Below are positions 13,478 through 48,821 of a DNA stretch of 64,000 bases, piece by piece. This DNA is from Candidatus Woesebacteria bacterium GW2011_GWF1_31_35 (GTDB taxonomy: Bacteria; Patescibacteriota; Microgenomatia; UBA8517). The notes under the pieces are model-generated. The model was given only the letters and a program-made list of their open reading frames with translations. It was not told the DNA's origin and made no database searches. The stretch spans positions 65,754 through 129,753 of the forward strand of contig CP011214.1 of assembly GCA_001029755.1 (NCBI GenBank), given 5' to 3'. The position numbers and the translations under genes are program-made. Position 1 is the stretch's first letter. Each line of letters begins with the position of its first letter.

Positions 13478-13523
13478 TAATTAACAATAATACGAATCAT
13501 TACCGAAGTCAATATTAACTCCA

Positions 13524-14243: not shown

Positions 14244-14345
14244 ACCTATATATTTTTCATCACCTGGAAAAACCTCTTCTTCTTTTATTGGTATTGCTAA
14301 AAGTTCTATAGCATCAACATCACTTAAATAATTCGTGCTTTTTTC

Positions 14346-14684
14346 TCAAACAACTGTTTTGTTTGGATTGTTTGAGTAAAATTTTTCAACCGAGGATTGT
14401 ATTACATCTAAATAAGGAAGATAGTTATCGTTACCTATTTCACCAGCTTCTTTAATCAAAGATTCTTCGATATTTAACGCATCCCTACTACCACTCATAT
14501 CCACCAAAGACGCTAGATTATTTGACATAAAGTTTAATGCTGTTATATTCTCATCTTTGTTTGGCAAAAAACTTCCAAAAAATAAAGCTCCTGTTCCAAT
14601 GGCAAACAATTTTAAAAAGTCTTTCCTTGATATTGAAATATTGTTTGGTACAACCTCGGGAATATTTATATCTTTTTTATCCAT
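14346..14684 (-). CDS. hypothetical secreted protein fragment (upstream part of the same interrupted frame)
   Basis: Start chosen at MDKKD (14684), 8 nt inside the secA stop. It has a signal-peptide-like SRKDFLKLFAIGTGALFFGSFLP and ends at TGA 14346..14348, in frame with 13524..14243. Confidence 0.35.
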   Translation of the reverse strand: MDKKDINIPEVVPNNISISRKDFLKLFAIGTGALFFGSFLPNKDENITALNFMSNNLASLVDMSGSRDALNIEESLIKEAGEIGNDNYLPYLDVIQSSVEKFYSNNPNKTVV

Positions 14685-17334
14685 ATTGTGGGTAGTGACA
14701 TCGTTTAAATTTTTTTCCGCTCCCACACCAACATGGATCATTACGTCCAATTTTAGGTTTGTCACTTTGTTTGTTGTTTATTTGTTTATTTGAATTGTCC
14801 TTTTCTACTAAACCAGTCATATCTGTTTTATCAATATTTTCAGTTGCAATATTAAGTGGAATTTCAGGTTGTGGAACATTAACCCCAATTCTAAATAGTC
14901 TTCTTGCAACTTCTTCATCAATTTTATTAAGAAGTGTTTCAAACATCTGATATGCTTCACCTTTAAATTCAACTAAAGGATCTCTTTGTCCATAAGCTCT
15001 TAGTCCAATTGCTTCTCTCAGGTCATCAATTGTATCAATATGGTCAATCCAATAATGATCAATTGAACCTAGGTAAGCATATTTTTCAATTTGGCGCATC
15101 ATGTTCTCACCTACTTGTGTTTCTCTTGCCTTATGCATATCCTTAAAAACGGTTTCTATAAATTCTTCAACTTCTTTAGAACTATTTCTTTTGGTAAGTT
15201 CATTTTTAAATTGTTTTGTAGAAGTTGGATCAAAAGGAACAACTTCTAAAAATCCAGCTACAACCGCATCATAGTCAATTGGAGTTATTTCACTTTGAGA
15301 TATTTTTTTAGCATGAATTCCAAGTTTCTCTAAAACTTCATCTTTTAAGTTTTTACTATCCAAAACTTTTCTTCTTAATGTATAAACTATCTCTCTTTGT
15401 TGATTAGCTACATCGTCAAATTCAACTAAACGTTTTCTAGTATCAAAATGAAATCCTTCTACTTTTACCTGAGATTGTTCAATAGCTCGACTTACCAATG
15501 GATTTTCAATTGGTTGATCTTCTGGAATTTTAAGTCTATCCATTAAGGATTTAATTTGTTCTCCACCAAAGATTCTCATTAAATCATCTTCCAATGAAAG
15601 ATAAAATTTTGAAGATCCAGGATCTCCCTGTCTTCCCGCACGACCCCTCAATTGATTATCAATTCTTCTTGATTCATGTCTTTCAGTCCCTATAACATGT
15701 AAGCCCCCTGTATCAATTACTTCTTTGTGAAGTTTTTCCCATTTTTCAATATCTTTTTTAGTATCAGGTTTAATACCACCCAAAATAATATCAACACCAC
15801 GACCAGCCATATTGGTGGCAACAGTTACAGCTTTTAATTTACCAGCATTTGCAATAATTTCAGCTTCCCTTTCATGATTTTTAGCATTTAATACATTGTG
15901 TGGAATTTTTCTTCTTTTTAAGTATTCAGAAATAATTACATTTTTTTCAATTGAAGTAGTACCAACCAAAACTGGTTGTCCATTTTTGTATTTTTCTTCA
16001 ATTGCATTAACAATTGCAGTATATTTTCCAGACAATGTTTTATAAATTGCATCTCCTTCATCAATTCTTATCATTTCTCTATTAGTTGGAATCGCAACAA
16101 CATCTAGTTTATAAATTTTTTTAAACTCTTCAGCCTCAGTTACTGCAGTACCTGTCATACCTGATAGGTGTTTATACATCCTGAAGTAATTTTGGAAAGA
16201 AATTGTTGCCAGTGTTTTACTTTCTTGTTGAATTGTTACCCCCTCTTTTGCTTCAACTGCTTGATGCAAACCATCTGACCAACGTCTACCTACCATTAGC
16301 CTTCCTGTAAATTCATCAACAATTATTACTTCATTATCTTTAACTACATAGTCTTTATCTTTAAGATAAAGACTTCTAGCTCTAAGTGCATTTTCAATAT
16401 GGTGAATACTTTCAAAATCTTTTTCATATAAATTATCAACTCCTAATACTTTTTCAACCTTACTAATACCATGTTCAGTTAAGGAAGCACTTTTACTTTT
16501 TTCATCAATTTTAAAATCAGTTTCAACATTTAATTTATCTACAATGCCTGCAAACTGATAATATTTTTGAGTAGGTTCCATGTCAGGCGCAGAAATAATT
16601 AATGGGGTTCTAGCTTCATCAATCAAAATTGAATCAACCTCATCAACAATTGCAAAATAATGACTTCTTTGACTCATTTCATCCAGGCTTTGAACCATGT
16701 TATCTCTTAAGTAATCAAAACCAAATTCATTATTAGTTCCATATGTAATATCAGTTTGGTAAGCTTCTTTTCTGGAAGCTGGTCTTAGGTGAGCCAGTCT
16801 TTCATCACCATGACTATTATCTGTAAATTTAGAATCAAATATAAATGATTTATTTTCCTGGACTATTACTCCAACCGAAAGTCCTAAAATTTCAAAAATT
16901 GGAGCATTCCAACCAGCACCAAGCCTTGCTAAAAAATCATTAACTGTTACCAAATGAACACCTTCTCCTTTTAGAGATCTTAGATAAAGTGCTGGAACTG
17001 CAGAAAGAGTTTTTCCTTCACCTGTTTTTTGTTCTACAATCTTTCCTTCAAAAAGTGCAATTGCTGCCATTAACTGAACATCATAATGTCGTTGGCCTAA
17101 AACTCTCCAAGAAGCTTCTCTTACTAAGGCATAGCTTTCAGGTAAAATTGATTCTAGAGTTTCACCTTTTTTAATTCTTTCTTTAAACTTTAAAGTTTCT
17201 TTCTTAAAATCTTCGATTTTAAATTTTTCATACTTACTAGAATGTTTATTAATCTCTACAACAGGTTTATTAAGTCTGTCTACTTCCTTTTGATTAAGGT
17301 CTAAAAATTTCGAAAAGAATTTAAACTTAAACAT
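14677..17334 (-). CDS. secA: preprotein translocase subunit SecA
   Basis: An 885-aa protein with DEAD-like motor motifs and a C-terminal zinc finger CWCGSGKKFKRCH. Confidence 0.95.
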   Translation of the reverse strand: MFKFKFFSKFLDLNQKEVDRLNKPVVEINKHSSKYEKFKIEDFKKETLKFKERIKKGETLESILPESYALVREASWRVLGQRHYDVQLMAAIALFEGKIVEQKTGEGKTLSAVPALYLRSLKGEGVHLVTVNDFLARLGAGWNAPIFEILGLSVGVIVQENKSFIFDSKFTDNSHGDERLAHLRPASRKEAYQTDITYGTNNEFGFDYLRDNMVQSLDEMSQRSHYFAIVDEVDSILIDEARTPLIISAPDMEPTQKYYQFAGIVDKLNVETDFKIDEKSKSASLTEHGISKVEKVLGVDNLYEKDFESIHHIENALRARSLYLKDKDYVVKDNEVIIVDEFTGRLMVGRRWSDGLHQAVEAKEGVTIQQESKTLATISFQNYFRMYKHLSGMTGTAVTEAEEFKKIYKLDVVAIPTNREMIRIDEGDAIYKTLSGKYTAIVNAIEEKYKNGQPVLVGTTSIEKNVIISEYLKRRKIPHNVLNAKNHEREAEIIANAGKLKAVTVATNMAGRGVDIILGGIKPDTKKDIEKWEKLHKEVIDTGGLHVIGTERHESRRIDNQLRGRAGRQGDPGSSKFYLSLEDDLMRIFGGEQIKSLMDRLKIPEDQPIENPLVSRAIEQSQVKVEGFHFDTRKRLVEFDDVANQQREIVYTLRRKVLDSKNLKDEVLEKLGIHAKKISQSEITPIDYDAVVAGFLEVVPFDPTSTKQFKNELTKRNSSKEVEEFIETVFKDMHKARETQVGENMMRQIEKYAYLGSIDHYWIDHIDTIDDLREAIGLRAYGQRDPLVEFKGEAYQMFETLLNKIDEEVARRLFRIGVNVPQPEIPLNIATENIDKTDMTGLVEKDNSNKQINNKQSDKPKIGRNDPCWCGSGKKFKRCHYPQYG

Positions 17335-17401
17335 AGATAAGTACTATTCTAACAGAATACATCCTGTGGTAAAATACGCTTTAGTAAACTTAACTAAGAA
17401 T

Positions 17402-18115
17402 ATGGAATTAGGAAAAGAAGATAAAGAAAACCCTCGACAACTTAAAGATGTAAATTTTTATATTGTCCCTGGAGGTATGTCTCCCACAATTCAAGAATGG
17501 CAAAATGATTTTGGAGAATTAATTAATAACATGGGGGTAAAAAAGGAAAATATTCATTTATCTCACCTTACAAATACAAATAAACCCAAAACATATTTTG
17601 GCCCATATAAAGATTGGAGAGAATCTTCAGATCTTCCAATTAATCCTGAAGAATCTAAAAATTCTGTTATTATTGCTCATTCAAGTGGAGCAGAACTTGC
17701 CATGATTTGGGCAGAACATCATAAAAATTTAGGTCTTATCCTTTTTTCACCATATGTAGACTCAAATGTTGGGCCTTTGGGAAATGGTTATTTAGAAAAA
17801 TATAGTGGAATGTTTAATAAAACTAATAAAGATGGAAAAAAAGTTAATAGAGAATTTAATTGGGAAAGAATTAGTAAAAACAGTAACTTTGTAATTATTG
17901 TCCATTCAGAAAATGACAAATTAGTACCAGCTCACCAAAGTTTTAATGTTTACAGAAGATTAAGAGGTGATACAGAAAATAAAAATATAATCTTTATTAA
18001 TTCAGAAAAAGGTGGACATTATCCAGTAAAAAGCCAATTCACGGAAGTTATGAAAACTGGAAAAATTTTTGAAAGTTTAGTCAAAAATAGTTTATTTTCT
18101 ACAAATAAACATTAA
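17402..18115 (+). CDS. alpha/beta hydrolase, YdeN/RBBP9-like serine hydrolase family
   Basis: It has the nucleophile elbow IIAHSSGAE and a downstream His/Asp. The ATG at 17402 is preferred over the GTG at 17366. Confidence 0.5.
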   Translation: MELGKEDKENPRQLKDVNFYIVPGGMSPTIQEWQNDFGELINNMGVKKENIHLSHLTNTNKPKTYFGPYKDWRESSDLPINPEESKNSVIIAHSSGAELAMIWAEHHKNLGLILFSPYVDSNVGPLGNGYLEKYSGMFNKTNKDGKKVNREFNWERISKNSNFVIIVHSENDKLVPAHQSFNVYRRLRGDTENKNIIFINSEKGGHYPVKSQFTEVMKTGKIFESLVKNSLFSTNKH

Positions 18116-18727
18116 GTTTGCTTGAGGATAAAAAAAATCAACTATTTTAAAATTTTGTTTTAATTTTTCTCCAAACTTTAAAGCATCTTTTCTATTATCT
18201 TTATAAAACAAACGGTTAAATATTACTAAACCATGATTTGACAAAATCTTTTTAATATTATTTAAAAACTTTTCACTTTCAAATTTTTTAGGAAATTTAT
18301 TTCCACAATAAGTATCAACAATTATTAAATCAAAAATTCCTTTTGTTAATTTAAAGGCATCTTGAATTTTTATATCAACTTTACTTTCTTCTAATCCTAA
18401 ATATGTATTTCCCAACTTAACCATCAAAGGATCTATCTCGACACCAACAATCTTTACATTAGGATATTTTTTTCTAATTAATTTAACTACTGTTCCACCA
18501 CCTAATCCTAATATTAAACAATTTTTAATATCTTTATTGTTTATTTTTTTTAAAGTGGATTTCCAAATTGATTCAACTACTCCCCCAGATTGTGTTAATC
18601 CATTAACTTGAATATATGTTCCAAAACCTAAACTTTTAACAACTTTAATATCTTTGTTAAACTTTGAATGTCTAACTTCTAATACTTTAGTACCAAACAT
18701 AAGACAATTGTAATACAATATCGTCAT
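18092..18727 (-). CDS. spermidine synthase-like class I SAM-dependent methyltransferase
   Basis: It has the Rossmann motif LILGLGGGTVVKLI and VGVEIDPLMV, typical of PABS-fold proteins. Confidence 0.5.
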   Translation of the reverse strand: MTILYYNCLMFGTKVLEVRHSKFNKDIKVVKSLGFGTYIQVNGLTQSGGVVESIWKSTLKKINNKDIKNCLILGLGGGTVVKLIRKKYPNVKIVGVEIDPLMVKLGNTYLGLEESKVDIKIQDAFKLTKGIFDLIIVDTYCGNKFPKKFESEKFLNNIKKILSNHGLVIFNRLFYKDNRKDALKFGEKLKQNFKIVDFFYPQANLMFICRK

Positions 18728-18908
18728 GACAGAAAATGTACCAAAGGGAATATCAAAAAAAGATATTAATCATAAATTAGACCAAGAGTTTTTAAGAAGG
18801 TTACAGGTAAACTTTATTGTAGAAGGATTTAAAGAAACTCAAGCTTTGGTTCAAAAAGCACAAGAGAAAAAAGATAGTAATTTAAAAAACAATAAAGCTA
18901 ATTCATAA
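18726..18908 (+). CDS. small hypothetical protein
   Basis: A 60-aa ORF directly upstream of rarA on the same strand with no motif, so it may not be a real gene. Confidence 0.2.
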   Translation: MTENVPKGISKKDINHKLDQEFLRRLQVNFIVEGFKETQALVQKAQEKKDSNLKNNKANS

Positions 18909-24137: not shown

Positions 24138-24602
24138 TTATTCTATAGCAAGAATCTCATATAAAACTTTACCTGCAGGAGCTTCAACTTCTAATTTTTC
24201 TCCTACTTTTTTTCCAATTAAAGCAGAACCTAAAGGAGAAGTTGGAGATATCTTTCTATTAACAGGATCTGCTTCCCATTCTCCAACTATTTCAAAAGTA
24301 TTTTTAATTCCATTTACTCTAACTGTAACTTTTGCACCAACTCCAGCTCCACTTCCTGATTTTGGTAAAGAAGCTACAATTTTTGCATTTTTAATAACAT
24401 CATTTAATTCATCGATTCTTCCTTCCAAAAATCCTAATTCTTCTTTAGCATTTTGATAATCACTATTTTCAGACAAATCTCCCTGTGATCTCGCATTAGA
24501 AAGTCTTTCTATTAATTGTGGTCTTTTTGTTTCCAGCAAAACCACTAACTCATCCTTAAGAGCTTTGAATCCTTTTTCTGTAAGTTGTATTTGTTTCGCC
24601 AT
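24138..24602 (-). CDS. greA: transcription elongation factor GreA
   Basis: It has a coiled-coil N-terminus with acidic tip (SENSDYQNAKEE) and an FKBP-like C-terminal domain. Confidence 0.9.
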   Translation of the reverse strand: MAKQIQLTEKGFKALKDELVVLLETKRPQLIERLSNARSQGDLSENSDYQNAKEELGFLEGRIDELNDVIKNAKIVASLPKSGSGAGVGAKVTVRVNGIKNTFEIVGEWEADPVNRKISPTSPLGSALIGKKVGEKLEVEAPAGKVLYEILAIE

Positions 24603-24749
24603 ATATCTATCGAAAAAAATATCCCTCCTTTTTGGAGAGAAATAATACTAACCGGTCTAGATTCTACCCCCTATTAACATCCAATGTCAAGAAATCAGAA
24701 AGTATCAAAATATAATCATTTTTGATAGAATATAAGATTATAAAGTTAT

Positions 24750-24822
24750 GGCCCCATCGTCTAGTGGCCTAGGACACCAGATTCTCATTCTGGGAACCTG
24801 GATTCGAATTCCAGTGGGGTCA
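24750..24822 (+). tRNA. tRNA-Glu (anticodon CTC)
   Basis: A hand-folded cloverleaf: acceptor GGCCCCA/TGGGGTC, D-arm GTC..GAC, anticodon stem CCAGA/TCTGG with loop TTCTCAT, T-arm CTGGA-TTCGAAT-TCCAG, discriminator A. CCA is not encoded. Confidence 0.8.
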
Positions 24823-25088
24823 CATATATCGCAAGGTTCAGCGCGACCCGTTGGCCTGCGCTGAAAAGCCCGATACTGCTTGTTAATTTTTGATCGAATT
24901 GTTCGAAATGTCGTTTTAGATCCTGTAATACGCAAATTCCCCTCTACTTTTTCCTTGCATTTAAGCCACGAGAAGAACACCTATCCTAGGTGTTGAGGCT
25001 ATTTTTGAATTGTTATCGCCCTTTTTGACAGAATAAACTTCGTTTTGATGAATGAAAGTGCTTCCTGTCTTTCCTCGGCAGTTCCGAT

Positions 25089-25460
25089 CTAAAGTATGTG
25101 TAAGAGATAGTTTTTTGTCATCTCATTTTTATCTGCTGAAGTTTGAGGAATTCTGTTGAATTCAGCTAGATGTCCATCTATAAATTCCTGATGGAGTACT
25201 TGGGTTTTGAGCCGGTGGTACCGTTCAATATCTTCTTGAATTTTTCTTGTTACTCCGGTGTGATTAAATTTGATTTTGTCGATATTGGCAATTAGTTGTT
25301 TTACCAAGTCGTCTTCAGTAATGTATGGCTCATCGCACTCGTAATTTAATGATCGGCCACAGTGATAATAGGTATGTTTGGCATATCCACCATGTTTTAG
25401 TTTTCTGATTTTTTCCTGAACTTCTTTCAGCCTTTCTTTTATCTCGTCTTCCTTTTTCAT
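25089..25460 (-). pseudogene. serine recombinase C-terminal fragment (remnant)
   Basis: This 123-aa ORF aligns to the zinc-ribbon/C-terminal region of the large serine recombinase at 36670..37989 (HTYYHCGRSLNYECDEPYITEDDLVKQLIANI vs HIYYHCARPLSKCTEPYISEDKLIKQILRYI). The N-terminal resolvase catalytic domain is missing. It lies 266 nt from tRNA-Glu in a GC-elevated segment. Confidence 0.55.
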
Positions 25461-25858
25461 TTCAATTTTTTTAGTAGTTCCTTTGGCGTTTTAACAATTT
25501 CTCTAAAAAGAATCTTTCGTGCATACTCTTCATCTTTGTCTGAAAGAGCATAAACTGGTTTGCCTAGTGCTACTGCGTATCCAATTTCTTGAGTAGTGCT
25601 ATTTCCACAATATCCATCTTTGTTAAAAACAAAAACTACATCAGCATTTTTTATCTTTTGAAAATGGTCAAATGTTAAACCTGCGACTACTTTTTCTTTA
25701 TACGTTTCTGATAGACCCTGGAATTCCTTAATTAATTTTGGTTCACGAAGTGGAAATGGTGGTTCAAACACGACAACACCCAGCTTTCTAAGTTCTGCTG
25801 CAAATTTTATGACTTCTGTTTTGAATCTTCCGCTTCCGCAAATAACAACACTTTTCAT
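25457..25858 (-). CDS. nucleoside 2-deoxyribosyltransferase-like (DNPH1/Rcl-fold) protein
   Basis: A 133-aa protein with MKSVVICGS..., FNKDGYCGNSTTQEIGYAVALGKPVY matching the NDT-family Glu-containing motif. Confidence 0.5.
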   Translation of the reverse strand: MKSVVICGSGRFKTEVIKFAAELRKLGVVVFEPPFPLREPKLIKEFQGLSETYKEKVVAGLTFDHFQKIKNADVVFVFNKDGYCGNSTTQEIGYAVALGKPVYALSDKDEEYARKILFREIVKTPKELLKKLK

Positions 25859-25862
25859 AATT

Positions 25863-26249
25863 TTATTTTAGTCTTTTTACTAGTTCCTTTGGAGTTTTAA
25901 TAATTTCATCAAAGAGAACATTTCTACAGGGTTCATCTTTATCTTCACTAAATACATATATTGGTTTCCCTAAGGCTTCAGCAAATCCCAACTCCATTGT
26001 TCCACTATTGCCCATATAACCATCTTTGTTAAAAATATAAACCACTTCTGACTTTCTAATAAAACTAAAGTGGTGGTGAGTTAACCCCAAGAACGAATAT
26101 CTTTTCAAGTTTGGTGGAAGATCATCTATTCTTCTGTCTTGGTTTAATATTGGTTCATGCACGGTCACTCCAAGTGCCTTGAGGTCTTTGCTAAATTTTC
26201 TGATTTCCTTTTCAAACCTTCTTGAACCACAAATTACAACACTTTTCAT
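25863..26249 (-). CDS. nucleoside 2-deoxyribosyltransferase-like protein (tandem paralog)
   Basis: A 128-aa protein about 50% identical to 25457..25858, with the same FNKDGYMGNSGTMELGFAEALGKPIY motif. Confidence 0.5.
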   Translation of the reverse strand: MKSVVICGSRRFEKEIRKFSKDLKALGVTVHEPILNQDRRIDDLPPNLKRYSFLGLTHHHFSFIRKSEVVYIFNKDGYMGNSGTMELGFAEALGKPIYVFSEDKDEPCRNVLFDEIIKTPKELVKRLK

Positions 26250-26294
26250 TGGGCAAATTGTACCACAATTTTACGATAGAAATTATTAAGATAT

Positions 26295-27182
26295 TTGATG
26301 GTTTGGTATACTTCAGTTGTGCTAAACAATAGAGGTCAAACTTTTAAACTTAAAGACGGAAGAAAATTAGGGTATGTCGAATATGGAGATCCAAAAGGTA
26401 AGCCTGTTTTCTTTTTTCATGGTTGGCCGGGATCTCGTTTTGCAGGGAAAGAGGCAGACAATGCTGGCAAAAAGTTAGGTGTAAGAATAATTTCAACAGA
26501 TAGACCGGGAATTGGATTATCGGATTTCAAAAAAGACAGGAGACTTCTTGATTGGCCAGACGATATTGTTGAGTTAGCAAACTATTTGAAAATAAAGAAG
26601 TTCTCTTTAATGGGAGTTTCTGGTGGTGGGCCATATGTTGCTGTGTGTGCATACAAAATTCCTGAAAGGATAATAAAAGCTGGTATAGTTGTCGGTCTAG
26701 CCCCCATAACTAAAAAGAATTTAGAAGGAATGTCGTCTCGAGGGAACGTTGGTTGGGCAAACTATCATAGATTTCCTTGGTTAAGAACACTTTCAGCCTT
26801 AAATTCGGCAATTCTTTTTAAATACGTTCCTTTTCTTGGCAATCTTCTCGCCTTTCCGACTAAACAAGATCATTTAGCGTATATCGAAGCTGTCAAAAAT
26901 AAAGCAGGAGAAGAATCCAGTGTTAAAGAAGCATTCAATCAAGGGATAAAAGGCCCAAGCGAGGAATTGAGGGTTTATACTGACAACTGGGGTTTTAAAG
27001 TGAAAGATATTAAAGGAAAAGTATATCTTTGGTATGGAGCAAAAGATAAATGTGTTTCCTTAAACATGGCCAGGTATTATGAATCTCAGATCCCAAACAG
27101 TAAATTATTTATTGATAAAGATGGAGGTCATCTTGCAAGGTACAACTTTGAAGAAAGAATATTAAAGACGCTAACACTATAA
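26295..27182 (+). CDS. alpha/beta hydrolase (proline iminopeptidase / epoxide hydrolase-like)
   Basis: It has the HGWPGS oxyanion region, the nucleophile elbow GVSGGG and a C-terminal GGH. Confidence 0.65.
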   Translation: MMVWYTSVVLNNRGQTFKLKDGRKLGYVEYGDPKGKPVFFFHGWPGSRFAGKEADNAGKKLGVRIISTDRPGIGLSDFKKDRRLLDWPDDIVELANYLKIKKFSLMGVSGGGPYVAVCAYKIPERIIKAGIVVGLAPITKKNLEGMSSRGNVGWANYHRFPWLRTLSALNSAILFKYVPFLGNLLAFPTKQDHLAYIEAVKNKAGEESSVKEAFNQGIKGPSEELRVYTDNWGFKVKDIKGKVYLWYGAKDKCVSLNMARYYESQIPNSKLFIDKDGGHLARYNFEERILKTLTL

Positions 27183-27689
27183 ATGATTGAAAAACACCCA
27201 TTCGGGAATTTTGTTCCTAAGAAACCAAAATATCTAATGTTGGGCAGTTTCGTAACCAAGCCGTCAAACCCATACGAATGGTTTTATGCCAACGGTAGAA
27301 ACCAATTCTGGCCAATAATGGGGGAGGTTTATACTTCTAACTTCAGCACCAAAGAAAAACAACAAAAGCTTTTTATACAACTAGAGATGGCTCTTGCGGA
27401 CATAATTTTATCTTGCGAAAGAAAGAAAAATAGTAATTTAGACATAAATCTGTTTAACATTGTCTATAATACGAAAGCAATAACGACCATTATTGACAAA
27501 TACAACATAAAGAAGATATTTTTCACTAGTCGGTATGTAGAAAACCTATTTAGAAAACAATTTAAAGGTCTTATCGAACAACATCCTAAAGTAGAATTGG
27601 TTACATTACCCTCACCTTCACCTCGTTACGCCATGGTTACCAAGTTGGAAAAGGTGGCTAAATATAAGGAGTTGCTGCCAAGACTCTAG
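27183..27689 (+). CDS. uracil-DNA glycosylase superfamily protein (family 6 / HDG-like)
   Basis: Motif A-like LMLGSFVTKPSNPYEWFYANGRNQFWPI (GSxPS...YY..NxFW) and motif B-like LPSPSPRYA are present. Confidence 0.5.
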   Translation: MIEKHPFGNFVPKKPKYLMLGSFVTKPSNPYEWFYANGRNQFWPIMGEVYTSNFSTKEKQQKLFIQLEMALADIILSCERKKNSNLDINLFNIVYNTKAITTIIDKYNIKKIFFTSRYVENLFRKQFKGLIEQHPKVELVTLPSPSPRYAMVTKLEKVAKYKELLPRL

Positions 27690-27693
27690 TTAA

Positions 27694-27826
27694 TATATCA
27701 AACTACATTATTATCATTTGAGACACCCTTTTTATAGTGTCTCATTTGTCTCATTTAGCCTTGATATGATACACTACGAAAGTTACTGGTTATGGGACTA
27801 AAGGGTTCCAGACCCGTATGGCTCAC
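27694..27826 (+). repeat. conserved about 133-nt non-coding element, copy 1 (tandem GTCTCATTT 9-mers plus hairpins)
   Basis: It aligns with 48009..48142. The first 15 nt (tatatcaaactacat) and a 46-nt core (ttttatagtgtctcatttgtctcatttagccttgatatgatacact) are shared with only 2 mismatches. The flanking stretches are about 70% identical, with hairpin GGGT-tccag-ACCC here versus GGT-ctcg-ACC in copy 2. Confidence 0.7.
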
Positions 27827-27896
27827 TATTTTAAACTATAACTTCAACAATCTTTATTTTTTAATGATGAGGTGATAAAGTCCTTCAATATGCAAT

Positions 27897-28256
27897 ATGA
27901 TTGAGAATAATAAAAATATACCTCCAGTGGAGACGGGGAATTTATTGGTCATGATTAGGGAAGCCACAAAAAGTGATTTAATTATTGCGAACTGGGATGA
28001 ATATGATAAATCATTTAATGATTTTACAAATGGATTTAAGGCCTCTGGTCATTTAGTTTTCGGATATCTTGATGGTAATAATGAATTTTATCCAGCAAAT
28101 TCTAATAAAGACATCTTCTATTCATATGATCTTACAAAAAGTATCAAAATAATTTCATGTAATCCTCAACCAATTATTCAAAAATTTAAAATTGAGGGTT
28201 ATGACAAAAATACAGGGAAAATAATTTTTGAAACAAACAACACTTCAAATAATTAA
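27897..28256 (+). CDS. hypothetical protein
   Basis: A 119-aa AT-rich ORF with no motif. Confidence 0.3.
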   Translation: MIENNKNIPPVETGNLLVMIREATKSDLIIANWDEYDKSFNDFTNGFKASGHLVFGYLDGNNEFYPANSNKDIFYSYDLTKSIKIISCNPQPIIQKFKIEGYDKNTGKIIFETNNTSNN

Positions 28257-28272
28257 ATGAGTATTAATTATT

Positions 28273-28815
28273 TTAACTCTTTTTTATTACCCCAAATTCT
28301 TTAATAAAACTTTCTTTTGTATGATAAAAAAGTGAAAGTGGTTGAGGTATTGATAGTTCATCAAGTTTTGGAGCTCCAATAATAGTTTTATCATGTGCTC
28401 TTATTAAATCTGGATCGTCTATAAATTGGTGAGTTTCAAATCCATGTCTTTCACCCCATTTAGTAGAGAGTGTACATAAACCCCAAATCTCATTAATTTT
28501 AATTAACCGAGAATCATTTTGAAGTTTAACTGCTAAATCGTTTAAATCAGTCTTTAAATTTTTAAAAAAAATCTTCATTAATTCTAGAGGTTTAGAATTA
28601 AGTTTATTTAATTCTTCCAAACCTTCTCGAAAATGAATAGATATAATTCCACAAGAATCATGAATAAAAATTGATAAATGTTTTCCAATTGGAATTGCTT
28701 TATCTTTCAACTCTTCATAATGTGTCCCTTCAATAAAAAGGTATTGTCCTAATGCAATTCTCTTCTCGTTATCCATACTAATTTTAAAATTAAAATTTAT
28801 TATTTTATCGGCCAA
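28273..28815 (-). CDS. hypothetical protein
   Basis: A 180-aa ORF immediately downstream of lon, overlapping its end by 16 nt. Confidence 0.3.
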   Translation of the reverse strand: MADKIINFNFKISMDNEKRIALGQYLFIEGTHYEELKDKAIPIGKHLSIFIHDSCGIISIHFREGLEELNKLNSKPLELMKIFFKNLKTDLNDLAVKLQNDSRLIKINEIWGLCTLSTKWGERHGFETHQFIDDPDLIRAHDKTIIGAPKLDELSIPQPLSLFYHTKESFIKEFGVIKKS

Positions 28816-33635: not shown

Positions 33636-33709
33636 TGCGGGGTCGTATAACGGCAGTACACATCCCTCTGGAGGATGTTATCTTGGTTCAAATCCAAGCC
33701 CCGCAGCCA
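33636..33709 (+). tRNA. tRNA-Gln (anticodon CTG), CCA encoded
   Basis: A hand-folded cloverleaf: U1-A72 acceptor TGCGGGG/CCCCGCA (as in bacterial tRNA-Gln), anticodon stem CATCC/GGATG with loop CTCTGGA, T-arm CTTGG-TTCAAAT-CCAAG, discriminator G, then CCA. Confidence 0.8.
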
Positions 33710-33865
33710 AGACGTGCAAGTTTGGAACGGTGCCCTCAACATTCACACCTTTAATTTGTGGGTACCTTTAGAATATGGTTGGTTCCTTTTGCTTACTCTG
33801 TCATTTAGGATTCAAACGACAACTCATTTCTCGTAGAGAAGGCCTGTAAGTGATACAATATTGCC

Positions 33866-34561
33866 ATGCTTAGCCTTAAAACATTGGATGTAGACCAGAG
33901 AACGGTTCTTATAATAAAACTCTTACAAGAACAGGTTGTCGATCAACGAAAAAAACTTGCGTATTGGAGAGATCTTACCAAACAACCATCTCAGATAGAC
34001 ACGGGTTATATCTCACAATATTTGCTTAGCTTAATTACATCCATATATGGTGGACTAATGAGAGGTAAAGGAACAGATCTTGATGATGGTTCAGAAATTA
34101 AAGCAGCAAACTTTTTAGATTCTTTAGATAAAAAGGGTGCCACAGCGCCCAGATGGAATTTATCGTCAAATAACTTAAAAACAATGGAGTCCTTCTTATC
34201 ATTCCCGGCTCTATACTTGGTGTCAATGGATCTTAACCCCGCTGGTAAATTTAGAACTCGAGTTTGGAAACTTGACCCAAATAAACACATTCTATTTAGA
34301 AAAAGGTATCTAGAATGGATGGAAAAATTGGGTAAGGTTAAACTTGGAGATCCGGGAAGGCCAGGTATAAATTTTCAATTATTTCCACCTCATAATAAAA
34401 CAGATGAAAGTTTCGCCAGACATGGAAATGGTAGAACAAATGGCTTTTCTCCAATTAAAATCGAACTTGAAGGTGTTCAGGGAGCAAAGAAAATACTACA
34501 TGCAGAAGAGAATAACGGTGTTATAGAAGTTATTTACCTAGATTCCAACATTACTGTATAA
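33866..34561 (+). CDS. putative type II restriction endonuclease (PD-(D/E)xK-like), partner of adjacent methyltransferase
   Basis: A 231-aa protein with the acidic cluster GTDLDDGSEIK (D...ExK). It converges on, and overlaps by 24 nt, the 3' end of an N6-adenine methyltransferase. The assignment rests mainly on genomic context. Confidence 0.3.
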   Translation: MLSLKTLDVDQRTVLIIKLLQEQVVDQRKKLAYWRDLTKQPSQIDTGYISQYLLSLITSIYGGLMRGKGTDLDDGSEIKAANFLDSLDKKGATAPRWNLSSNNLKTMESFLSFPALYLVSMDLNPAGKFRTRVWKLDPNKHILFRKRYLEWMEKLGKVKLGDPGRPGINFQLFPPHNKTDESFARHGNGRTNGFSPIKIELEGVQGAKKILHAEENNGVIEVIYLDSNITV

Positions 34562-36637
34562 ATTTTCGAACAGCAATTTAATATTTCTGTTTGCGTCATA
34601 TTTTTTCTCCTCATAATTCTTTATTTTTTCAGCAATCTTAAGCAGTTCTTGTTCGCTAGAACTATTCTTTTTGGGCCATGGAAGTTTGATATCCATTAGC
34701 TCAGAATCCTTAATTCTATTATGCGAGGATGACGTGCCAGAGGTTAATGATAAAACTTGTTTTAAAACAATATCAGTTAAGAGTAGTGTCTTAAGTAAGT
34801 AAGTATACTTTTCTTCATATGGCTTAATAATTTCAAATTCGCTAGAGCAGGTTAGGATTATGTTTGTATCAAACACTACAGTTACTCTTGGAATTCGTGG
34901 GTTAATCTTAGAAAACAATATGTCACCTGGGTAGCACTCTCTACCTGGAGAAATAGGATTGTATTTCATAACTTCATCTACTTTGATCGTAGAGTCTTCA
35001 TTAATATGTAAAATGCTTATATGCTTGACCGTATCAGAAGCAGATTTCTTTTTTCTATTTTTTGTACAAAACTCAGCGATCTTTTTTAGGGGAATGATTT
35101 CAAATTCCTCTGAGTTAATTTTTTGGAAATTCGACACCGTATGTAATCTATCTGCACTATAGAAATTAGCATTCCATTTCCCATTAATGAGTTGTTCAAA
35201 CGGGAATATTACCACTGAGGGCTTCGTACTTAAAACCTTAATTCCGTGATGTTCCTTTGCTGAATTATATAATTCAGCAATTGTTTCCAAGTCATTAGTT
35301 CCAGAATAAATTTTGGTTGCAGTTCCTACCTTTTCTTTAACTTCATAACCTATATCGCTTGCTGTGGCCATAAATATTCCATTTTGTTGAAATTTTTGCT
35401 CATATGGCTTCTGAATATACAAAATAGAGCATTTAGTTCTAGTTCCTGCTTGCGCAAAAGTAACCGCTGGTAAATCAATAACTCCTCGCAAAATAAACCT
35501 TGTCGATAAAAGGTCTCTATAAACCTCATTCATTCCTTTCGATGACACTATTCCATCTGGAACAACTATTAAAAGTCTTCCGCCTGGCTTAAGAAGTTTC
35601 AAACATCGATCAAGCATGATTAGTTCTGAATAGAGAGTTTTAACATTGGAGTATTCTTTAATTTCTGAAAGAAATTCGTATTTATCAGATTCGGAAATAA
35701 TTTCGTCTATATTAAATTCGGCACCAAAAGGTGGGTTTGTAAGAATTAAATCAACCTTACCCACGTATTGATCTATGAAAGAATCCCCCAATATACTATT
35801 CCCTTGTTGAACCAGTTCAGGATTAAGCCCAGATAACAAATAGTTTATTTTAGACATCCTGACCATCCGGTCGACTTTGTCTTGACCTATGAATCCATTA
35901 TTTTTTCTTAAAGAAATTATTTTGCCTTTATTTTTAATATTCGAAGATTCAATAACTTCGACCAATTTTTTATATGAGTAGATAAGAAATGAACTGACAC
36001 CACTTGTTGGATCAAGAACTATAAACGAATCAGGGTTTTCAGATAAAAGGTTGTCGTAAGAAGACTTGTCGTTTTTAATATCTTTAAATGCAATCTCGAT
36101 AGCTGTGTTCACGACTTCCACCGGGGTCATGTATTGGGCGTCTTCTTTATGGTTTCTAAAGTTATCTCGAACAAAATGTCCAAAAGCTTCATTTAATATA
36201 TCTATATTTTTATTTGTGCCTCCATTCTCTGTAAGATTAATGTTATTAATGACTTTAATAATTTTTATCGCAAAGTCATTATCAGTAGTCTGAATATTGA
36301 GGTGGGCGTTTGATCCAAAAACGTTAGAACCGTCTTTGTTAATGAACATCTTATTTTCAGCTATGTCGGAAAACACAGATTGGAGGGCATTTGCAATGTT
36401 TTTCTTATCCCCAAATTTGGCTAGAGCAACCTTTTCTAAATGGGCTAGATCTAGAGAACTAGAGTTATTTTTAAGATCAAAGTATTTAATAACGAGCAAT
36501 TTAAGTATCTCATCAAGCTTCGTGTTGGCGTCATCATACCGCCCTGTTTTGTGAAATTCTTCTTTTAACTCATCCAGGGCAGTATTAAAATTGTCTAGAA
36601 GAATTTCGTTAGATGGTTTTAGGGTAAGTTGAGTCAT
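34538..36637 (-). CDS. N6-adenine DNA methyltransferase (gamma-class, HsdM-like catalytic domain with fused C-terminal target-recognition region)
   Basis: It has motif X-like AQYMTP, motif I DPTSGVSSFL and motif IV LILTNPPFG. The C-terminal 300 aa are non-catalytic. Total length is 699 aa. Confidence 0.75.
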   Translation of the reverse strand: MTQLTLKPSNEILLDNFNTALDELKEEFHKTGRYDDANTKLDEILKLLVIKYFDLKNNSSSLDLAHLEKVALAKFGDKKNIANALQSVFSDIAENKMFINKDGSNVFGSNAHLNIQTTDNDFAIKIIKVINNINLTENGGTNKNIDILNEAFGHFVRDNFRNHKEDAQYMTPVEVVNTAIEIAFKDIKNDKSSYDNLLSENPDSFIVLDPTSGVSSFLIYSYKKLVEVIESSNIKNKGKIISLRKNNGFIGQDKVDRMVRMSKINYLLSGLNPELVQQGNSILGDSFIDQYVGKVDLILTNPPFGAEFNIDEIISESDKYEFLSEIKEYSNVKTLYSELIMLDRCLKLLKPGGRLLIVVPDGIVSSKGMNEVYRDLLSTRFILRGVIDLPAVTFAQAGTRTKCSILYIQKPYEQKFQQNGIFMATASDIGYEVKEKVGTATKIYSGTNDLETIAELYNSAKEHHGIKVLSTKPSVVIFPFEQLINGKWNANFYSADRLHTVSNFQKINSEEFEIIPLKKIAEFCTKNRKKKSASDTVKHISILHINEDSTIKVDEVMKYNPISPGRECYPGDILFSKINPRIPRVTVVFDTNIILTCSSEFEIIKPYEEKYTYLLKTLLLTDIVLKQVLSLTSGTSSSHNRIKDSELMDIKLPWPKKNSSSEQELLKIAEKIKNYEEKKYDANRNIKLLFENLYSNVGI

Positions 36638-36669
36638 AAATAGATTATTATCTCATTTTCAGATTAAAA

Positions 36670-37989
36670 TCAACTATAACTATCTGCATCAACCTTTTGT
36701 TCTTGATATGCAGATATAAAGCGATCCTTAATACACAACTGTGTATTTAAAGCTTTTACGAGATCTCTTTTTTCTTGAATTGTTCCACTAGTAAGAATAT
36801 ACTTGGCGAAATTTACAGGGTCTAAAGGTCTACTGTTTGGATTAATATCTTGTTCATAAAGTATCTCTTCCCTTATAGATAAATATGAGGATGCGCTTGT
36901 TTTTAGCACTTCAGTAAACTTTAGAAAATTTGGATGGGCAATATTCATAAAGTTTATATATCGCAAAATCTGTTTTATCAGTTTATCCTCACTAATATAT
37001 GGTTCAGTACACTTACTAAGTGGACGTGCACAATGATAGTAAATATGTCTTCTTGGTTCTGCCCATTTTCTCTTTCTCAGTCGATCCTCCCCAATAATAT
37101 TTGATCCGCAATTGCCACACTTAAATAAACCTTTAAATGTAATCACTTTTTCTCCCCAGCCTGATTTTGGGTATGTAATTAACTGTTCTTGTACTTTATC
37201 GAATACTCCTTTAGTAACTAAGGGTGGATGTTTTCCTTGATACCACACTCCACCTCCGACAGGGTATTCAAATCTCCCATAATAGAAGGGGTTTTTGAGC
37301 ATCTGGTAAATCTGACTGAGCGCGACTCCTTTTCCTTTCCGTGTTGTTATCTTAATCTGATCAAACCATCTTTTGATCGTTCTTCCACTATCACCATTCT
37401 TTGCAACCCTCTCAAACATCTCGGTAATAATGTAGCCTCTGTCTGGATCGACAATAATGTCCTTCAATCCACCCATAGCACGGTTGTAGTAGCCGATTGG
37501 AGGTGGCCCAGGTCTCCACCCCATTGAACATTTTGCTCGGATACCTCTTTTAACATTAATCCCTTTCTGGTCGTTCTCAAGCTTTGCTTGCGAGCAGAGA
37601 ATCATAAGTAAGAACTTTTCATTCGGATTATTTGAGAAACTTTGCGAGAAAGTTTTGATTTGATGTAGTTTCTCTTGATCCATAAGATCCACAAGCATTC
37701 CGAGATCTCCGGCGTTTCTACTAAGTCTGTCTGGTGCCCAAGTCAGTATGCCTGTAAACATTCCAGCTCTTATGTCAGTAATAAGCTGACTAAACACTGG
37801 TCTCTGCCCTGACATTTTTGCTGAATGACTTTCTTTGCGGATTTCTTTTATGAAGAAATTTTCTCGTACTGCCATTTCGCTCATCTCTTTAATCTGGGAA
37901 TCTATCGACATTGCTTGACGCTCATCGTCCTCACTCGATTTTCTGGCATAGAGACAGTACTCGGTTGATGTTACTAAGTTTGGTTCCAT
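36670..37989 (-). CDS. large serine recombinase (integrase)
   Basis: The N-terminal resolvase domain has the catalytic Ser context YARKSSEDDERQAMSIDSQ. The recombinase domain, zinc ribbon CGNCGSN...YYHCARPLSKC and C-terminal coiled-coil follow. Confidence 0.85.
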   Translation of the reverse strand: MEPNLVTSTEYCLYARKSSEDDERQAMSIDSQIKEMSEMAVRENFFIKEIRKESHSAKMSGQRPVFSQLITDIRAGMFTGILTWAPDRLSRNAGDLGMLVDLMDQEKLHQIKTFSQSFSNNPNEKFLLMILCSQAKLENDQKGINVKRGIRAKCSMGWRPGPPPIGYYNRAMGGLKDIIVDPDRGYIITEMFERVAKNGDSGRTIKRWFDQIKITTRKGKGVALSQIYQMLKNPFYYGRFEYPVGGGVWYQGKHPPLVTKGVFDKVQEQLITYPKSGWGEKVITFKGLFKCGNCGSNIIGEDRLRKRKWAEPRRHIYYHCARPLSKCTEPYISEDKLIKQILRYINFMNIAHPNFLKFTEVLKTSASSYLSIREEILYEQDINPNSRPLDPVNFAKYILTSGTIQEKRDLVKALNTQLCIKDRFISAYQEQKVDADSYS

Positions 37990-38135
37990 TTGTTTAGAAA
38001 TCTCTTAAATTTATCTGCTTGTTTAAAGAACTTTCCGCAATATTCGCCATCCTTAGTAAGGGCGTACTTATAGAAGTAGTACATACACATGTGGAGGTGT
38101 TTGAGAGCCTTTTGCTTTTGATCCTGATTATTCAT
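37974..38135 (-). CDS. small Cys/His-containing ORF overlapping the recombinase start (candidate accessory/directionality factor)
   Basis: A 53-aa hand-translated ORF (MNNQDQKQKALKHLHMCMYYFYKYALTKDGEYCGKFFKQADKFKRFLNKWNQT), co-directional with the recombinase and overlapping its start by 16 nt. It is below the ORF-track cutoff. Confidence 0.2.
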   Translation of the reverse strand: MNNQDQKQKALKHLHMCMYYFYKYALTKDGEYCGKFFKQADKFKRFLNKWNQT

Positions 38136-38189
38136 CAGGTACAAGGTACCGCAAAGGTGGTGGAAGTCTAGCCCTCAAAAATACTATAG

Positions 38190-38399
38190 CTAGGAGATAT
38201 CTATGGAGATTTTCAAAATACGAGCGATCTTGCTCAAAACTTCTAGGGAGGGGCCGTTTCTGCCTTGCTCTATATAGCCCATATACGCTCGACTTATACC
38301 AACCTTATCCGCAAGTTCTTCTTGGGTTAGCCCAATTTGATTGCGTCGTTTCTGGATTTTCTTTCCCAATACCTTTGGTAATTTTGCATTCTTGCGCAT
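38190..38399 (-). CDS. XRE family helix-turn-helix transcriptional regulator (Cro/CI-like)
   Basis: The HTH IGLTQEELADKVGISRAYMGYIEQGRNGPSLEVLSKIARIL is present, and the protein is 69 aa. Confidence 0.8.
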   Translation of the reverse strand: MRKNAKLPKVLGKKIQKRRNQIGLTQEELADKVGISRAYMGYIEQGRNGPSLEVLSKIARILKISIDIS

Positions 38400-38435
38400 G
38401 TGTTAATTGTCGAAAACATTGAACTCATAGTCCAC

Positions 38436-38497: not shown

Positions 38498-38525
38498 TTC
38501 AGGATATAAGAAAGGAGGTGAAAAT

Positions 38526-39377: not shown

Positions 39378-39414
39378 ATTACAACAGAAAGATCGAGAGG
39401 TCTTTCTGTTGTGC

Positions 39415-43287: not shown

Positions 43288-43288
43288 A

Positions 43289-47315: not shown

Positions 47316-47972
47316 TTAAGGAGTAGGAACATCTGACCAACCCTCTTTACCCTGAGTGAATTCTCTTCCGTCTGGTGCCACACATCTTCTTATTCCTGTT
47401 CTCTCGTAATATTGTTCTGAGGAGAGTTGACCGCCATCGCGGCCAATGGCTTTAGCGCAATCTTCGTATTTTTTAACCCATGAGTATTTTTCTTTGAGTG
47501 TAGGTGCTAAATCGCCACCAGGAAGAAGTTCAGGATCAAAACTACTGTCAGGACATCCATGGTTGCAGGAGTTGCGTTCACCTTCATTTAGTAATACATC
47601 TGCAATTTGCCAAGCAGTCATACTCTGAGAAATCATATATCTAGCTTCTCGGTCAATGGTGTTACTGCCAATGGTAAGAGCATTCCCTTTGCCTGAAGTA
47701 TTGTCTTTTGTGTGCTCTAAAGCGTATTTAAAAGCTTCTTCGTCTTTAACGAATCCGTAATAGCGAAGATCGCCAGCTACAGCCGTTAAGGTTTTATCTT
47801 TACTAATCGTAAATCCAATTGATTGAGTATTTTGTCTTGGAGCCCCAAACTTACTTTGCCAATTTCTATACCAGAGAGTAGACGCGAAGATTGCAACTAT
47901 TACAAGGACTGCCAAGTATATGAGCCAGCGTGGGAATGATTTAGTCTTTTTTGGCATATAGTATCTAATCAA
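47316..47972 (-). CDS. membrane-anchored protein with MltG/YceG N-terminal-like domain plus Cys-rich tail (island copy)
   Basis: It has an N-terminal TM and LRYYGFVKDEEAFKYALEHTKD...TAWQIADVLLN, which is paralogous to 48303..48821. The sequence is GC-rich. Confidence 0.4.
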   Translation of the reverse strand: MIRYYMPKKTKSFPRWLIYLAVLVIVAIFASTLWYRNWQSKFGAPRQNTQSIGFTISKDKTLTAVAGDLRYYGFVKDEEAFKYALEHTKDNTSGKGNALTIGSNTIDREARYMISQSMTAWQIADVLLNEGERNSCNHGCPDSSFDPELLPGGDLAPTLKEKYSWVKKYEDCAKAIGRDGGQLSSEQYYERTGIRRCVAPDGREFTQGKEGWSDVPTP

Positions 47973-48302: not shown

Positions 48303-48821
48303 ATGATCAAAAAGCTTCTCAAAAACAGATATTTGATTGTCGGCGGGGTTCTTCTGGTTCTTGGGGTTTCAGTGTTTCTCCTGTCTGAGAAACAACCGAA
48401 TATGGATAATTTCAAAGCCCCAGGAAGGAGTTGGAACTCTTCCAAAAAAGTAGAGGACTATTTTATTGAAAAATTGAGAATGACCCCCCAAGAAGCATCT
48501 GAAATAAGATCAAAACCAGGAGTTGATGGAACTATTGATTTAAGGATAACCACAAATACCACTTTAGGTGGAGTTATTGGAAATCTTTATTATTATGGTT
48601 TCATTAGAGATGAAAATTCTTTCCGCTATGCATTAGATCACACAAAAGACACGACTCCCAGCGATAAGGCAATTAAAGTTGATGTAAATAAAACAATTGA
48701 CACTAATGCAGAATACAGGATTTCAGAAGAGATGAGTGCATGGCAAATTGCTGACATTTTATTAAATAGACCTTCCGGACATTTCGCTTTTGATGAATAT
48801 AATTATTTCTTTATGCCCTGA
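48303..48821 (+). CDS. membrane-anchored protein with MltG/YceG N-terminal-like domain (host-side paralog)
   Basis: It has an N-terminal TM and LYYYGFIRDENSFRYALDHTKD...SAWQIADILLN. The first 150 nt or so are GC-richer than the rest of the gene. Confidence 0.4.
   Translation: MIKKLLKNRYLIVGGVLLVLGVSVFLLSEKQPNMDNFKAPGRSWNSSKKVEDYFIEKLRMTPQEASEIRSKPGVDGTIDLRITTNTTLGGVIGNLYYYGFIRDENSFRYALDHTKDTTPSDKAIKVDVNKTIDTNAEYRISEEMSAWQIADILLNRPSGHFAFDEYNYFFMP

Follow-up and report, generated by a model that had tools for sequence, protein, structure and literature searches.

A probable relic of a phage-like large serine recombinase element at the 3' end of a tRNA-Glu gene in a Woesebacteria genome

The 3' ends of tRNA genes are the textbook target of tyrosine integrases. 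Described serine integrases, to our knowledge, target protein-coding or intergenic sites, and a large serine recombinase (LSR) normally needs attachment arms of roughly 50 bp. SCCmec and pseudo-SCC elements depend on Ccr serine recombinases acting at the 3' end of rlmH. A published account ties serine integrases to protein-coding targets and tRNA 3' ends to tyrosine integrases, and describes knowledge of the serine-integrase targets of integrative and conjugative elements as scarce (PMC4701971). The present analysis concerns 3 kb of DNA, positions 24824-27826, in a stretch of 64,000 nucleotides from Candidatus Woesebacteria bacterium GW2011_GWF1_31_35, referred to below as the window. This region, island 1, directly follows a tRNA-Glu(CUC) gene and is very probably the relic of a temperate, phage-like LSR element of 9-14 kb that had entered at the 3' end of that gene. 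A second region, island 2 (33710-48140), follows a tRNA-Gln(CTG) gene and carries a recombinase gene at 36670..37989. Features of island 1 are collected in Table 1; contigs and genomes used for comparison carry handles beginning with L.

The gene of island 1 nearest to the tRNA is an open reading frame (ORF) of 123 codons. Its product aligns to residues 301-383 of the island-2 recombinase with 31% identity over 84 residues (E = 2e-13), and a Pfam scan detects in it neither the resolvase catalytic domain PF00239 nor the recombinase domain PF07508, the homology beginning at about LSR residue 312. This agrees with the original prediction, made from the letters of the window, that the ORF corresponds to the C-terminal part of such an enzyme without its catalytic domain. 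What remains covers part of the zinc ribbon (its second half), together with the coiled-coil region and C-terminal tail. The zinc ribbon retains YYHC...EC, the second cysteine pair only, while the CxxC pair is lost; PF13408 matches at E = 0.0083, with 16.9 bits, under its cut-off of 25.3.

A metagenome scan finds that full-length LSR genes of the island-1 clade exist, and the enzyme encoded on contig L095 has all three domains. Read through the stop codon of the relic, window positions 25421..25002 encode a sequence 97.9% identical over 140 residues to the C-terminus of the full-length L095 LSR, and the DNA of the locus is 87.5% identical to L095 over 666 nt, continuing through the non-coding spacer and the tRNA. 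The stop is an in-frame TAG at 25089-25091, where relatives have Gln; beyond it, the ancestral frame holds 30 more conserved codons, to 24999. At the opposite end, DNA homology to intact or partial relatives stops within 25415-25417 in 10 comparisons, so the first 15 codons of the ORF come from elsewhere. All 15 homologues of the ORF found in a collection of 5.8 billion proteins are themselves fragments, of 77-185 residues, with at least four different truncation points and with foreign N-termini that include HAD-like sequence, a ParB fragment and a secreted protein. These alignments show that the ORF descends from an LSR gene, of which it represents the 3' third, and does not belong to a distinct small-protein family. 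A tblastn search with two full-length LSRs detects no N-terminal LSR remains at E < 0.8 across 24600-28400. The original prediction suggested looking for such remains in 24823..25088, where they are impossible, because that region lies downstream of the relic and holds an attachment-site arm and the last 30 codons. On contig L001 (9219-10537), a near-complete LSR gene of the island-1 type is split by a single-base deletion, CCTTTC to CCTTC, seen both in an NCBI assembly and in a Logan assembly; the split may be an early stage of decay, or else a sequencing error common to the assemblies.

Two conserved non-coding arms, here named P' and P, bound island 1. The foreign stretch had been thought to begin with the ORF; the 108-nt P' arm comes first, although the end coordinates, 24824 and 27826, agree. 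The P' arm was found in 22 distinct copies, each flanked on one side by an LSR gene, at its 3' end, and on the other by a tRNA gene on the opposite strand, and the sequence in the window is 90.5% identical to that of L095 over 201 nt. A structured RNA in this arm was considered and dropped, as RNAalifold on the 22 copies returned -2.2, with essentially no consensus helix. The P arm is copy 1 of the 133-nt element that, according to the original prediction, closes the stretch. Copies are found at 27694-27826 and 48009-48140, with 96% identity over a 46-nt core and 88% over 84 nt. The P arm also closes L097, a complete element of 9.5 kb, on the side away from the tRNA, and it does the same for relics in L003 and L005, where 2.7 kb separate it from the recombinase fragment; it is present in IMG/VR contigs L090 and L091 as well. 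When 27650-27880 was searched against Rfam at relaxed settings for a known RNA in the 133-nt element, no match fell below E = 0.99.

The core TCAC is common to both junctions of the island and at the tRNA-Glu end occupies 24820-24823. The left junction reads ...CCAGTGGGGTCAC/ATATATCGCAAGGTT..., with tRNA sequence before the stroke, and the right junction reads ...GGTTCCAGACCCGTATGGCTCAC/TATTTTAAAC.... The arrangement at the left, tRNA-Glu, TCAC, P' arm and LSR 3' end, is the same in intact relatives. In L112 (1636-1853) and L122 (134-444), the two arms are joined directly, as ...GGTTCCAGACCCGTATGGCTCAC/ATATACATCAAGGTT..., which is the P-core-P' order expected of attP, the site carried by the element; it could stem from a free circle or from tandem copies that meet there. 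As delimited by these alignments, the arms have exact ends, and the limits of the island are 24824 and 27826.

The last 24 nt of the P arm (27803-27826, GGTTCCAGACCCGTATGGCTCAC) resemble the T-arm and acceptor 3' strand of a tRNA. Compared with the 3' end of the tRNA-Lys gene of L097, 16 of 24 positions match, and the final GGCTCACA is identical. In the window the arm ends in ...GGCTCAC (27826), as it does in L097 and L113. At every attL the acceptor 3' strand fits the 5' strand of its own host tRNA, with TGGGGTC in the window, TCGGCTC in the tRNA-Lys of L097 and TAGGGTC in L115. The strand accordingly belongs to the host, and the crossover probably fell beyond the acceptor stem on its 3' side, within or adjoining TCAC(A). 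A perfect terminator hairpin comes after the P arm of L097, which is what displacement of the native trailer of the tRNA gene would leave there. The whole window contains no second match, at three mismatches or fewer, to the 24-nt 3' end of tRNA-Glu, in line with a very short core.

Within the P arm, an alignment of 12 copies contains an invariant TATAGT and repeated TGTCTCATT motifs. Its core, TTTTATAGTGTCTCATTTGTCTC, is invariant in all 12 and comprises two direct TGTCTCATT repeats, an inverted GAGACA upstream and ATGATACAC downstream. The first gene inside the element points away from the P arm in three of four cases examined (island 2, L003 and L005), and the layout of L097 is the same. 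This core may be an operator or a promoter. A promoter-like site at 27711-27738 uses the invariant TATAGT and is only a lead; counts over the island are uninformative, with 17 promoter-like sites against 13.9 expected and three terminator-like sites against 2.2 expected.

Table 1. Features of island 1 and its boundaries (window coordinates).
Feature	Position	Strand	Description
tRNA-Glu(CUC)	24750..24823	+	ARAGORN; Rfam 56.5 bits; 3' end is the chromosomal attachment site
P' arm (left junction, attL)	24824..24931	+	108 nt non-coding, TCAC/ATATATCGCAAGGTTCAGCGCGACC to CCTGTAATAC; 22-copy conservation
Spacer, poorly conserved	24932..24998		between P' arm and original recombinase stop; 22-copy conservation ends after CCTGTAATA
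LSR gene relic	24999..25415	-	last ~139 codons; translation through TAG; L095 match
123-aa ORF as called	25089..25460	-	hybrid: 15 foreign codons (25416-25460), then recombinase relic to nonsense codon
Recombination breakpoint between strains, inside relic	25254..25255		window vs L126
NDT-like gene a	25457..25858	-	133 aa; PF05014, 8e-07, 29.6 bits, just above cut-off 28.8
NDT-like gene b	25863..26249	-	128 aa; PF05014, 3e-06, 27.8 bits, just below cut-off 28.8
Alpha/beta-fold hydrolase	26295..27182	+	PF00561, 8.8e-17
UDG family 6-like hypoxanthine-DNA glycosylase	27183..27689	+	TIGR04274, 1.4e-17, 64.2 bits (cut-off 80), full length
P arm (right junction, attR), copy 1 of 133-nt element	27694..27826	+	12-copy alignment; core TCAC 27823-27826

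An LSR gene followed by a tRNA gene on the opposite strand occurs at 17 further loci, where the tRNA is Glu(CTC) in seven, Glu(TTC) in eight and Lys(TTT) in two; the P' arm was detected between the two genes in most of them. The idea that tRNAs with C34 are the rule fails here: the same LSR clade is found at tRNA-Glu(UUC) and tRNA-Lys(UUU) as well, which makes the C34 of the original prediction coincidental. The complete 9.5-kb copy on L097 has tRNA-Lys and P' on one side and the P arm on the other. Its seven large ORFs include two LSRs and a ParB-methyltransferase, identified by Pfam scan, and a small and a large terminase, identified by tblastn; the remaining two of the seven have no match. 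The second LSR of L097 (1125-2450; 441 residues, full-length, with all three domains) adjoins the P arm, and the other LSR adjoins P'. No tyrosine integrase was matched by Pfam among the ORFs of island 1 or the seven large ORFs of L097. The LSR is the only candidate integrase, since the L097 scan finds LSRs and no tyrosine-integrase match, and it is presumably the enzyme that performed the integration.

Intact elements of this kind measure ~9-14 kb and encode an LSR, a ParB-methyltransferase, small and large terminases and repressor-type regulators. The ParB-methyltransferase and both terminase genes lie upstream of the LSR in L095, L097 and L100; those of L095 are up to 94% (ParB-methyltransferase), 73% (small terminase) and 64% (large terminase) identical to their counterparts in island 2. 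LSRs of the island-1 type are 65% identical to the island-2 enzyme over the N-terminal 230 residues and about 33% identical in the C-terminal DNA-binding part. In L003 the relic is joined to part of a ParB gene, with 80% identity to the ParB-methyltransferase of island 2, and an internal deletion in an island-2-like element would give exactly this fusion. Both islands end in the same P-arm family, with the last ~25 nt differing. The N-terminal identity, the common arm, the terminase and ParB genes beside the LSR and the ParB fusion in L003 all place islands 1 and 2 in one element family, as had been proposed.

The window represents a low-GC genome (about 31%) of Woesebacteria/Microgenomates type. 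By lysyl-tRNA synthetase (LysRS), its nearest public genomes are Patescibacteria and Woesebacteria metagenome-assembled genomes at 60-81% identity. Two tRNA genes are present in the window, tRNA-Glu(CTC) at 24750-24823 and tRNA-Gln(CTG) at 33636-33709, and an Rfam scan of the window found nothing else above thresholds. GC content over 24824-27830 is 35.8%, compared with 30.6 +/- 1.4% for the background and a maximum of 33.4% among 150 3-kb windows; the rise after the tRNA, noticed in the original prediction, is modest but real. Six genomes of Woesebacteria or other Microgenomates with LysRS 60-81% identical (L006, L010, L011, L016, L033 and L037) retain lon and greA-lysS. The tRNA-Glu(CTC) gene lies between lon and greA in the first five and is not shown in L037. 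None of the six carries any island gene at the lon-greA locus, where the interval measures 0.2-7 kb and has unrelated content. The 3-kb segment is thus absent from relatives that keep the order lon, tRNA-Glu(CTC), greA-lysS. Two further genes of the window, orf119 and orf180, lie between attR and lon (27897-28815) in DNA of 27% GC and have no homologues in L006, L011 or L016; they may represent another lineage-specific insertion in the same hotspot. An 80-aa ORF at 24738..24980 (minus strand) runs antisense to tRNA-Glu and the P' arm, and is regarded as spurious because its protein conservation elsewhere merely mirrors conserved DNA.

Contigs from the same and sister strains differ from the window within the relic. 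The same-strain contig L004 has a 33-bp in-frame deletion of 11 codons in the relic, with flanking proteins 100% identical. Hybrid junction and cargo are shared with the sister-strain contig L126, which shows two mismatches to the window across the cargo and the distal part of the relic (about 2060 nt); from 25254 to 25000 it differs from the window at 56 of 254 nt (22%), mostly synonymously. Its tRNA-proximal relic allele is about 78% identical to every other copy compared. The relic is a mosaic, and on the simplest reading a second, related element entered the same tRNA and was removed by homologous recombination in the LSR 3' region.

Successive insertions have left traces elsewhere too. 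L003 carries a new LSR of 565 residues between the tRNA and the old relic, with its 3' end overlapping tRNA-Glu(CTC). Between that LSR and the old relic of L003 lies a pair of genes (12025-13941 and 17076-18799) with weak to faint Pfam matches to OLD-like TOPRIM and AAA-ATPase domains. In L010 (5575-5868), three tRNA-Glu 3' ends are spaced about 84 nt apart, the last followed by a P' arm, with no recombinase remains; they look like the stacked scars of serial integrations. L110 (17982-18209) has tRNA-Glu(CTC), a 113-nt P' arm and the last ~40 nt of a P arm directly joined. A whole element has shrunk here to a scar of ~170 nt, and an older relic lies at a distance of 7.6 kb. Repeated integration followed by erosion, as first suggested for the window, is directly supported by the L126 mosaic and by the stacked scars of L003, L010 and L110.

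Might the 123-aa ORF have been domesticated, its coiled coil and half zinc ribbon serving to block incoming recombinases (superinfection exclusion) or to regulate something? Its ATG and the stop codon of the NDT-like gene before it overlap (ATGA), which would allow operon translation, and many relic ORFs elsewhere are open to the native stop. Between the window and L126, the relic has dS 0.69, dN 0.037 and dN/dS 0.05, a value that could indicate purifying selection, although allele replacement from functional genes accounts for it as well. We regard domestication as very improbable. Owing to the nonsense codon, the product lacks its final 30 residues, where the family is most strongly conserved, and the same-strain contig L004 has lost 11 codons. 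Two of four zinc ligands are left, and truncation points and fused N-termini are different in every lineage.

The arms raise a different possibility, a non-autonomous cargo cassette for which an intact relative supplies LSR and directionality factor in trans, much like pseudo-SCC without ccr. Both ends of island 1 look well preserved: over its last 30 nt the P arm departs from the family consensus at a single position, a variant shared with L005, and the P' arm starts with ~33 nt that match the intact copy L102 exactly. L003 and L005 have, like the window, a P arm, then cargo (2.2-2.8 kb, entirely unlike that of the window), an LSR relic and P', and the block of hydrolase, glycosylase and P arm recurs in another genome context. 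Nevertheless, 24 contigs provide no second insertion site, circle or empty site. Truncation points vary among genomes, as from independent deletions and not from the spread of one cassette, and the sole LSR of the window, in island 2, is 31-33% identical in the DNA-binding C-terminal part, is paired with a different P-arm end and probably cannot act on island 1. A cassette mobile in this way is improbable, and decay of an element once complete remains our preferred reading.

Between the arms lie four cargo genes, two for nucleoside deoxyribosyltransferase-like (NDT-like) proteins, one for a hydrolase and one for a glycosylase of the uracil-DNA glycosylase (UDG) superfamily. The Pfam and TIGRFAM matches in Table 1 point to the identities first proposed for them, in the case of NDT-like gene b and the glycosylase with scores under the cut-off. 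The NDT-like proteins are paralogues, about 50% identical, and the gene pair has 33.7% GC. TIGR04274 describes DNA-deoxyinosine glycosylase; the glycosylase has no Pfam match, and a PDB sequence search with it returned nothing significant. Its more than 800 homologues, mostly from Microgenomates, are named hypoxanthine-DNA glycosylase in their sources. A defence search with PADLOC gave one marginal TIR-like match, to NDT-like b (E = 6.5e-4). From the family names, one could guess at a role in nucleoside salvage or base repair.

Whether these genes came with the element deserves separate consideration. In an alternative that we judge unlikely, yet the least so of those weighed here, only the relic and the arms derive from the element, and the four genes replaced its interior later, for instance by recombination between the conserved arms of different strains. 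The glycosylase, with close homologues across Microgenomates, looks like a common repair gene. The NDT-like genes occur in no other element copy examined, and IMG/VR holds no relatives of NDT-like gene a or of the glycosylase. Moreover, the content between the conserved ends is wholly different in L003 and L005, and the junction with the relic is a clean break. Set against this, all four genes lie strictly between attL and attR, their GC content of 33.7-36.9% is above every background window, and the nearest species lack them at the locus. In L127 and L128, hydrolase, glycosylase and P arm are linked as in the window (86% amino acid identity; arm 89%), and this travelling block sits downstream of a LexA-like/DUF2188 module resembling the regulatory module of island 2. 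The four genes probably arrived with the element.

Several points weigh against the view of island 1 as a decayed, once-complete element. The comparisons turned up neither an empty tRNA-Glu site nor an excised circle nor a presence/absence polymorphism, all 24 same-species contigs carrying the island; the search for an unoccupied site in the same species was a lookup of orf119, which returned island-bearing contigs only. Likewise, no unoccupied site was found with which to compare the chromosomal (B') half of attR. The low dN/dS of the relic fits refreshment from functional copies and equally fits selection on the fragment. Recombination activity of the members of the family is a prediction from their sequences. 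Conserved arms of 133 and 108 nt go far beyond what an LSR needs and must serve another role as well. Finally, part of the cargo could post-date integration, because the NDT-like genes are in no other copy and the glycosylase is widespread.

The following course of events would account for the locus. The LSR would have recombined attP with the extreme 3' end of tRNA-Glu(CUC). The attP site would have consisted of the 133-nt P arm, ending in the tRNA mimic (...GGCTCAC), and then the P' arm just downstream of the LSR gene. With a crossover inside or beside TCAC(A), the tRNA would be left intact and the trailer alone exchanged, and the product of integration would read tRNA, P', LSR, further genes with the cargo, P and old trailer. 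An internal deletion or replacement may then have removed everything from LSR codon ~312 through the accessory region, so that the 3'-terminal third of the LSR gene came to adjoin an NDT-like gene. The nonsense codon would have arisen later, in the relic, and one strain would have lost a further 33 bp. A related element presumably visited the same tRNA at least once more, and homologous recombination in the LSR 3' region, in the lineage of the window or in the sister lineage, would have swapped the tRNA-proximal 254 nt or more of the relic.

A more speculative idea, to which we attach little credence, is that relics of this sort are working parts, cargo cassettes movable in trans with intact attachment arms, whose retained ~400 nt of LSR 3' homology could act as a trap. 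If so, homologous recombination would delete a newly arrived relative and leave a refreshed relic, as in the L126 mosaic. The island would then confer passive immunity against its own family, and the long arms (133 and 108 nt) would carry cis functions.

Island 2 offers a second view of the family. Copy 2 of the 133-nt arm and the P arm L127a end in ...GTATGCTCAGCA..., resembling the 3' end of tRNA-Gln, ...CGCAGCCA. Immediately 3' of tRNA-Gln, the window is longer by about 15-17 kb than L006, the nearest species. Island 2, together with the restriction-modification genes in it, probably integrated at tRNA-Gln in a like manner, a case less well supported than that of island 1. PHROGs searches with ten of its proteins identify small and large terminases, the ParB-methyltransferase, a CI/LexA-like repressor and a helix-turn-helix regulator. 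No capsid or portal match was obtained for these ten proteins, and one match to a 'tail protein', from a metallo-beta-lactamase-fold protein, is doubtful. With this gene content, and with complete copies of only 9-14 kb, the elements of island 2, L087, L097 and L100 look closer to a phage satellite than to a complete prophage. The stretch from tRNA-Gln to the recombinase gene of island 2 (33866-36637) holds a MamI-like restriction enzyme gene and a 699-residue N6-methyltransferase fusion, probably cargo located between P' and the LSR; a methyltransferase-like gene is likewise found past the LSR in L087 and L089. Copy 2 of the 133-nt arm is flanked by two diverged paralogues that point outward, at 47316..47972 (minus strand) and 48303..48821 (plus strand); one of them belongs to the high-GC island and the other to host-like DNA. 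The IMG/VR contig L091 (UViG_3300020195_001307, 1-14480) has a direct repeat unit of 9117 bp and the P-arm core, with no LSR. Its genes include terminase genes, two methyltransferases and, by eye, ribonucleotide reductase- (a large ORF), kinase- and NUDIX-like ORFs; the contig may represent a relative that does not integrate, or else several passes of the assembly through one circular genome.

On this reading of island 1, the origin of 3 kb of foreign DNA is settled with base-exact ends, and the 133-nt repeat is explained as an attachment-site arm. The comparisons also expose, in Woesebacteria and other Microgenomates of the candidate phyla radiation, a family of small terminase-bearing elements that appears to target the last bases of tRNA-Glu, tRNA-Lys and probably tRNA-Gln genes by means of LSRs, with a tRNA-mimicking attachment arm that changes together with the C-terminal domain of the recombinase. 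The mobile elements of these uncultured bacteria are poorly known, and matched sets of recombinase, attP and tRNA target could serve integrase bioprospecting. The erosion of an island is illustrated by a series that runs from complete element to 3-kb relic to 170-nt scar. A literature search found no description of serine-recombinase elements at tRNA genes in bacteria of the candidate phyla radiation, although its coverage was incomplete and this is weak evidence of novelty. The relic itself is an ordinary decayed integrative element, of an unusual and apparently undescribed variant.

Among known systems, the phage large serine integrases (phiC31, Bxb1, A118, TP901-1) share with the intact relatives the architecture of resolvase, recombinase and zinc-ribbon domains. 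As there, the integrase gene lies beside attP and hence at one end of the integrated element, and the core is very short, without a long direct repeat. Here, however, the target is a tRNA 3' end, the arms measure 133 and 108 nt, the P arm mimics tRNA, and the elements, unlike the phages with such integrases, are 9-14 kb in size. Phage satellites of the phage-inducible chromosomal island (PICI) type provide a lead: they too combine a size of ~10 kb, an integrase, a CI/LexA-type repressor, a small terminase and a lack of recognisable structural genes. The elements described here differ in that they also encode a large terminase, use a serine recombinase as integrase and have no known helper phage.

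Islands and "grounded" prophages placed at tRNA genes by tyrosine integrases resemble island 1 in lying directly 3' of a tRNA, in their raised GC content and in their absence from relatives. They likewise lose mobility genes while keeping cargo, and may be occupied serially, with stacked remnants like those of L003, L010 and L110. Island 1 departs from them in having no tyrosine-integrase match among its ORFs (nor among the seven large ORFs of L097) and no distal duplicate of the tRNA 3' end, and in that the tRNA is not replaced by element DNA. SCCmec also inserts right at the 3' terminus of a conserved gene, which it leaves functional, and builds up in tandem. Pseudo-SCC elements are, like island 1, recombinase-less remnants with intact ends, and the two LSR genes of some relatives (L097) add to the likeness. 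In contrast to SCCmec, the family described here belongs to another host phylum, targets a tRNA gene instead of a protein gene, and carries terminase and ParB-methyltransferase genes in place of resistance cargo.

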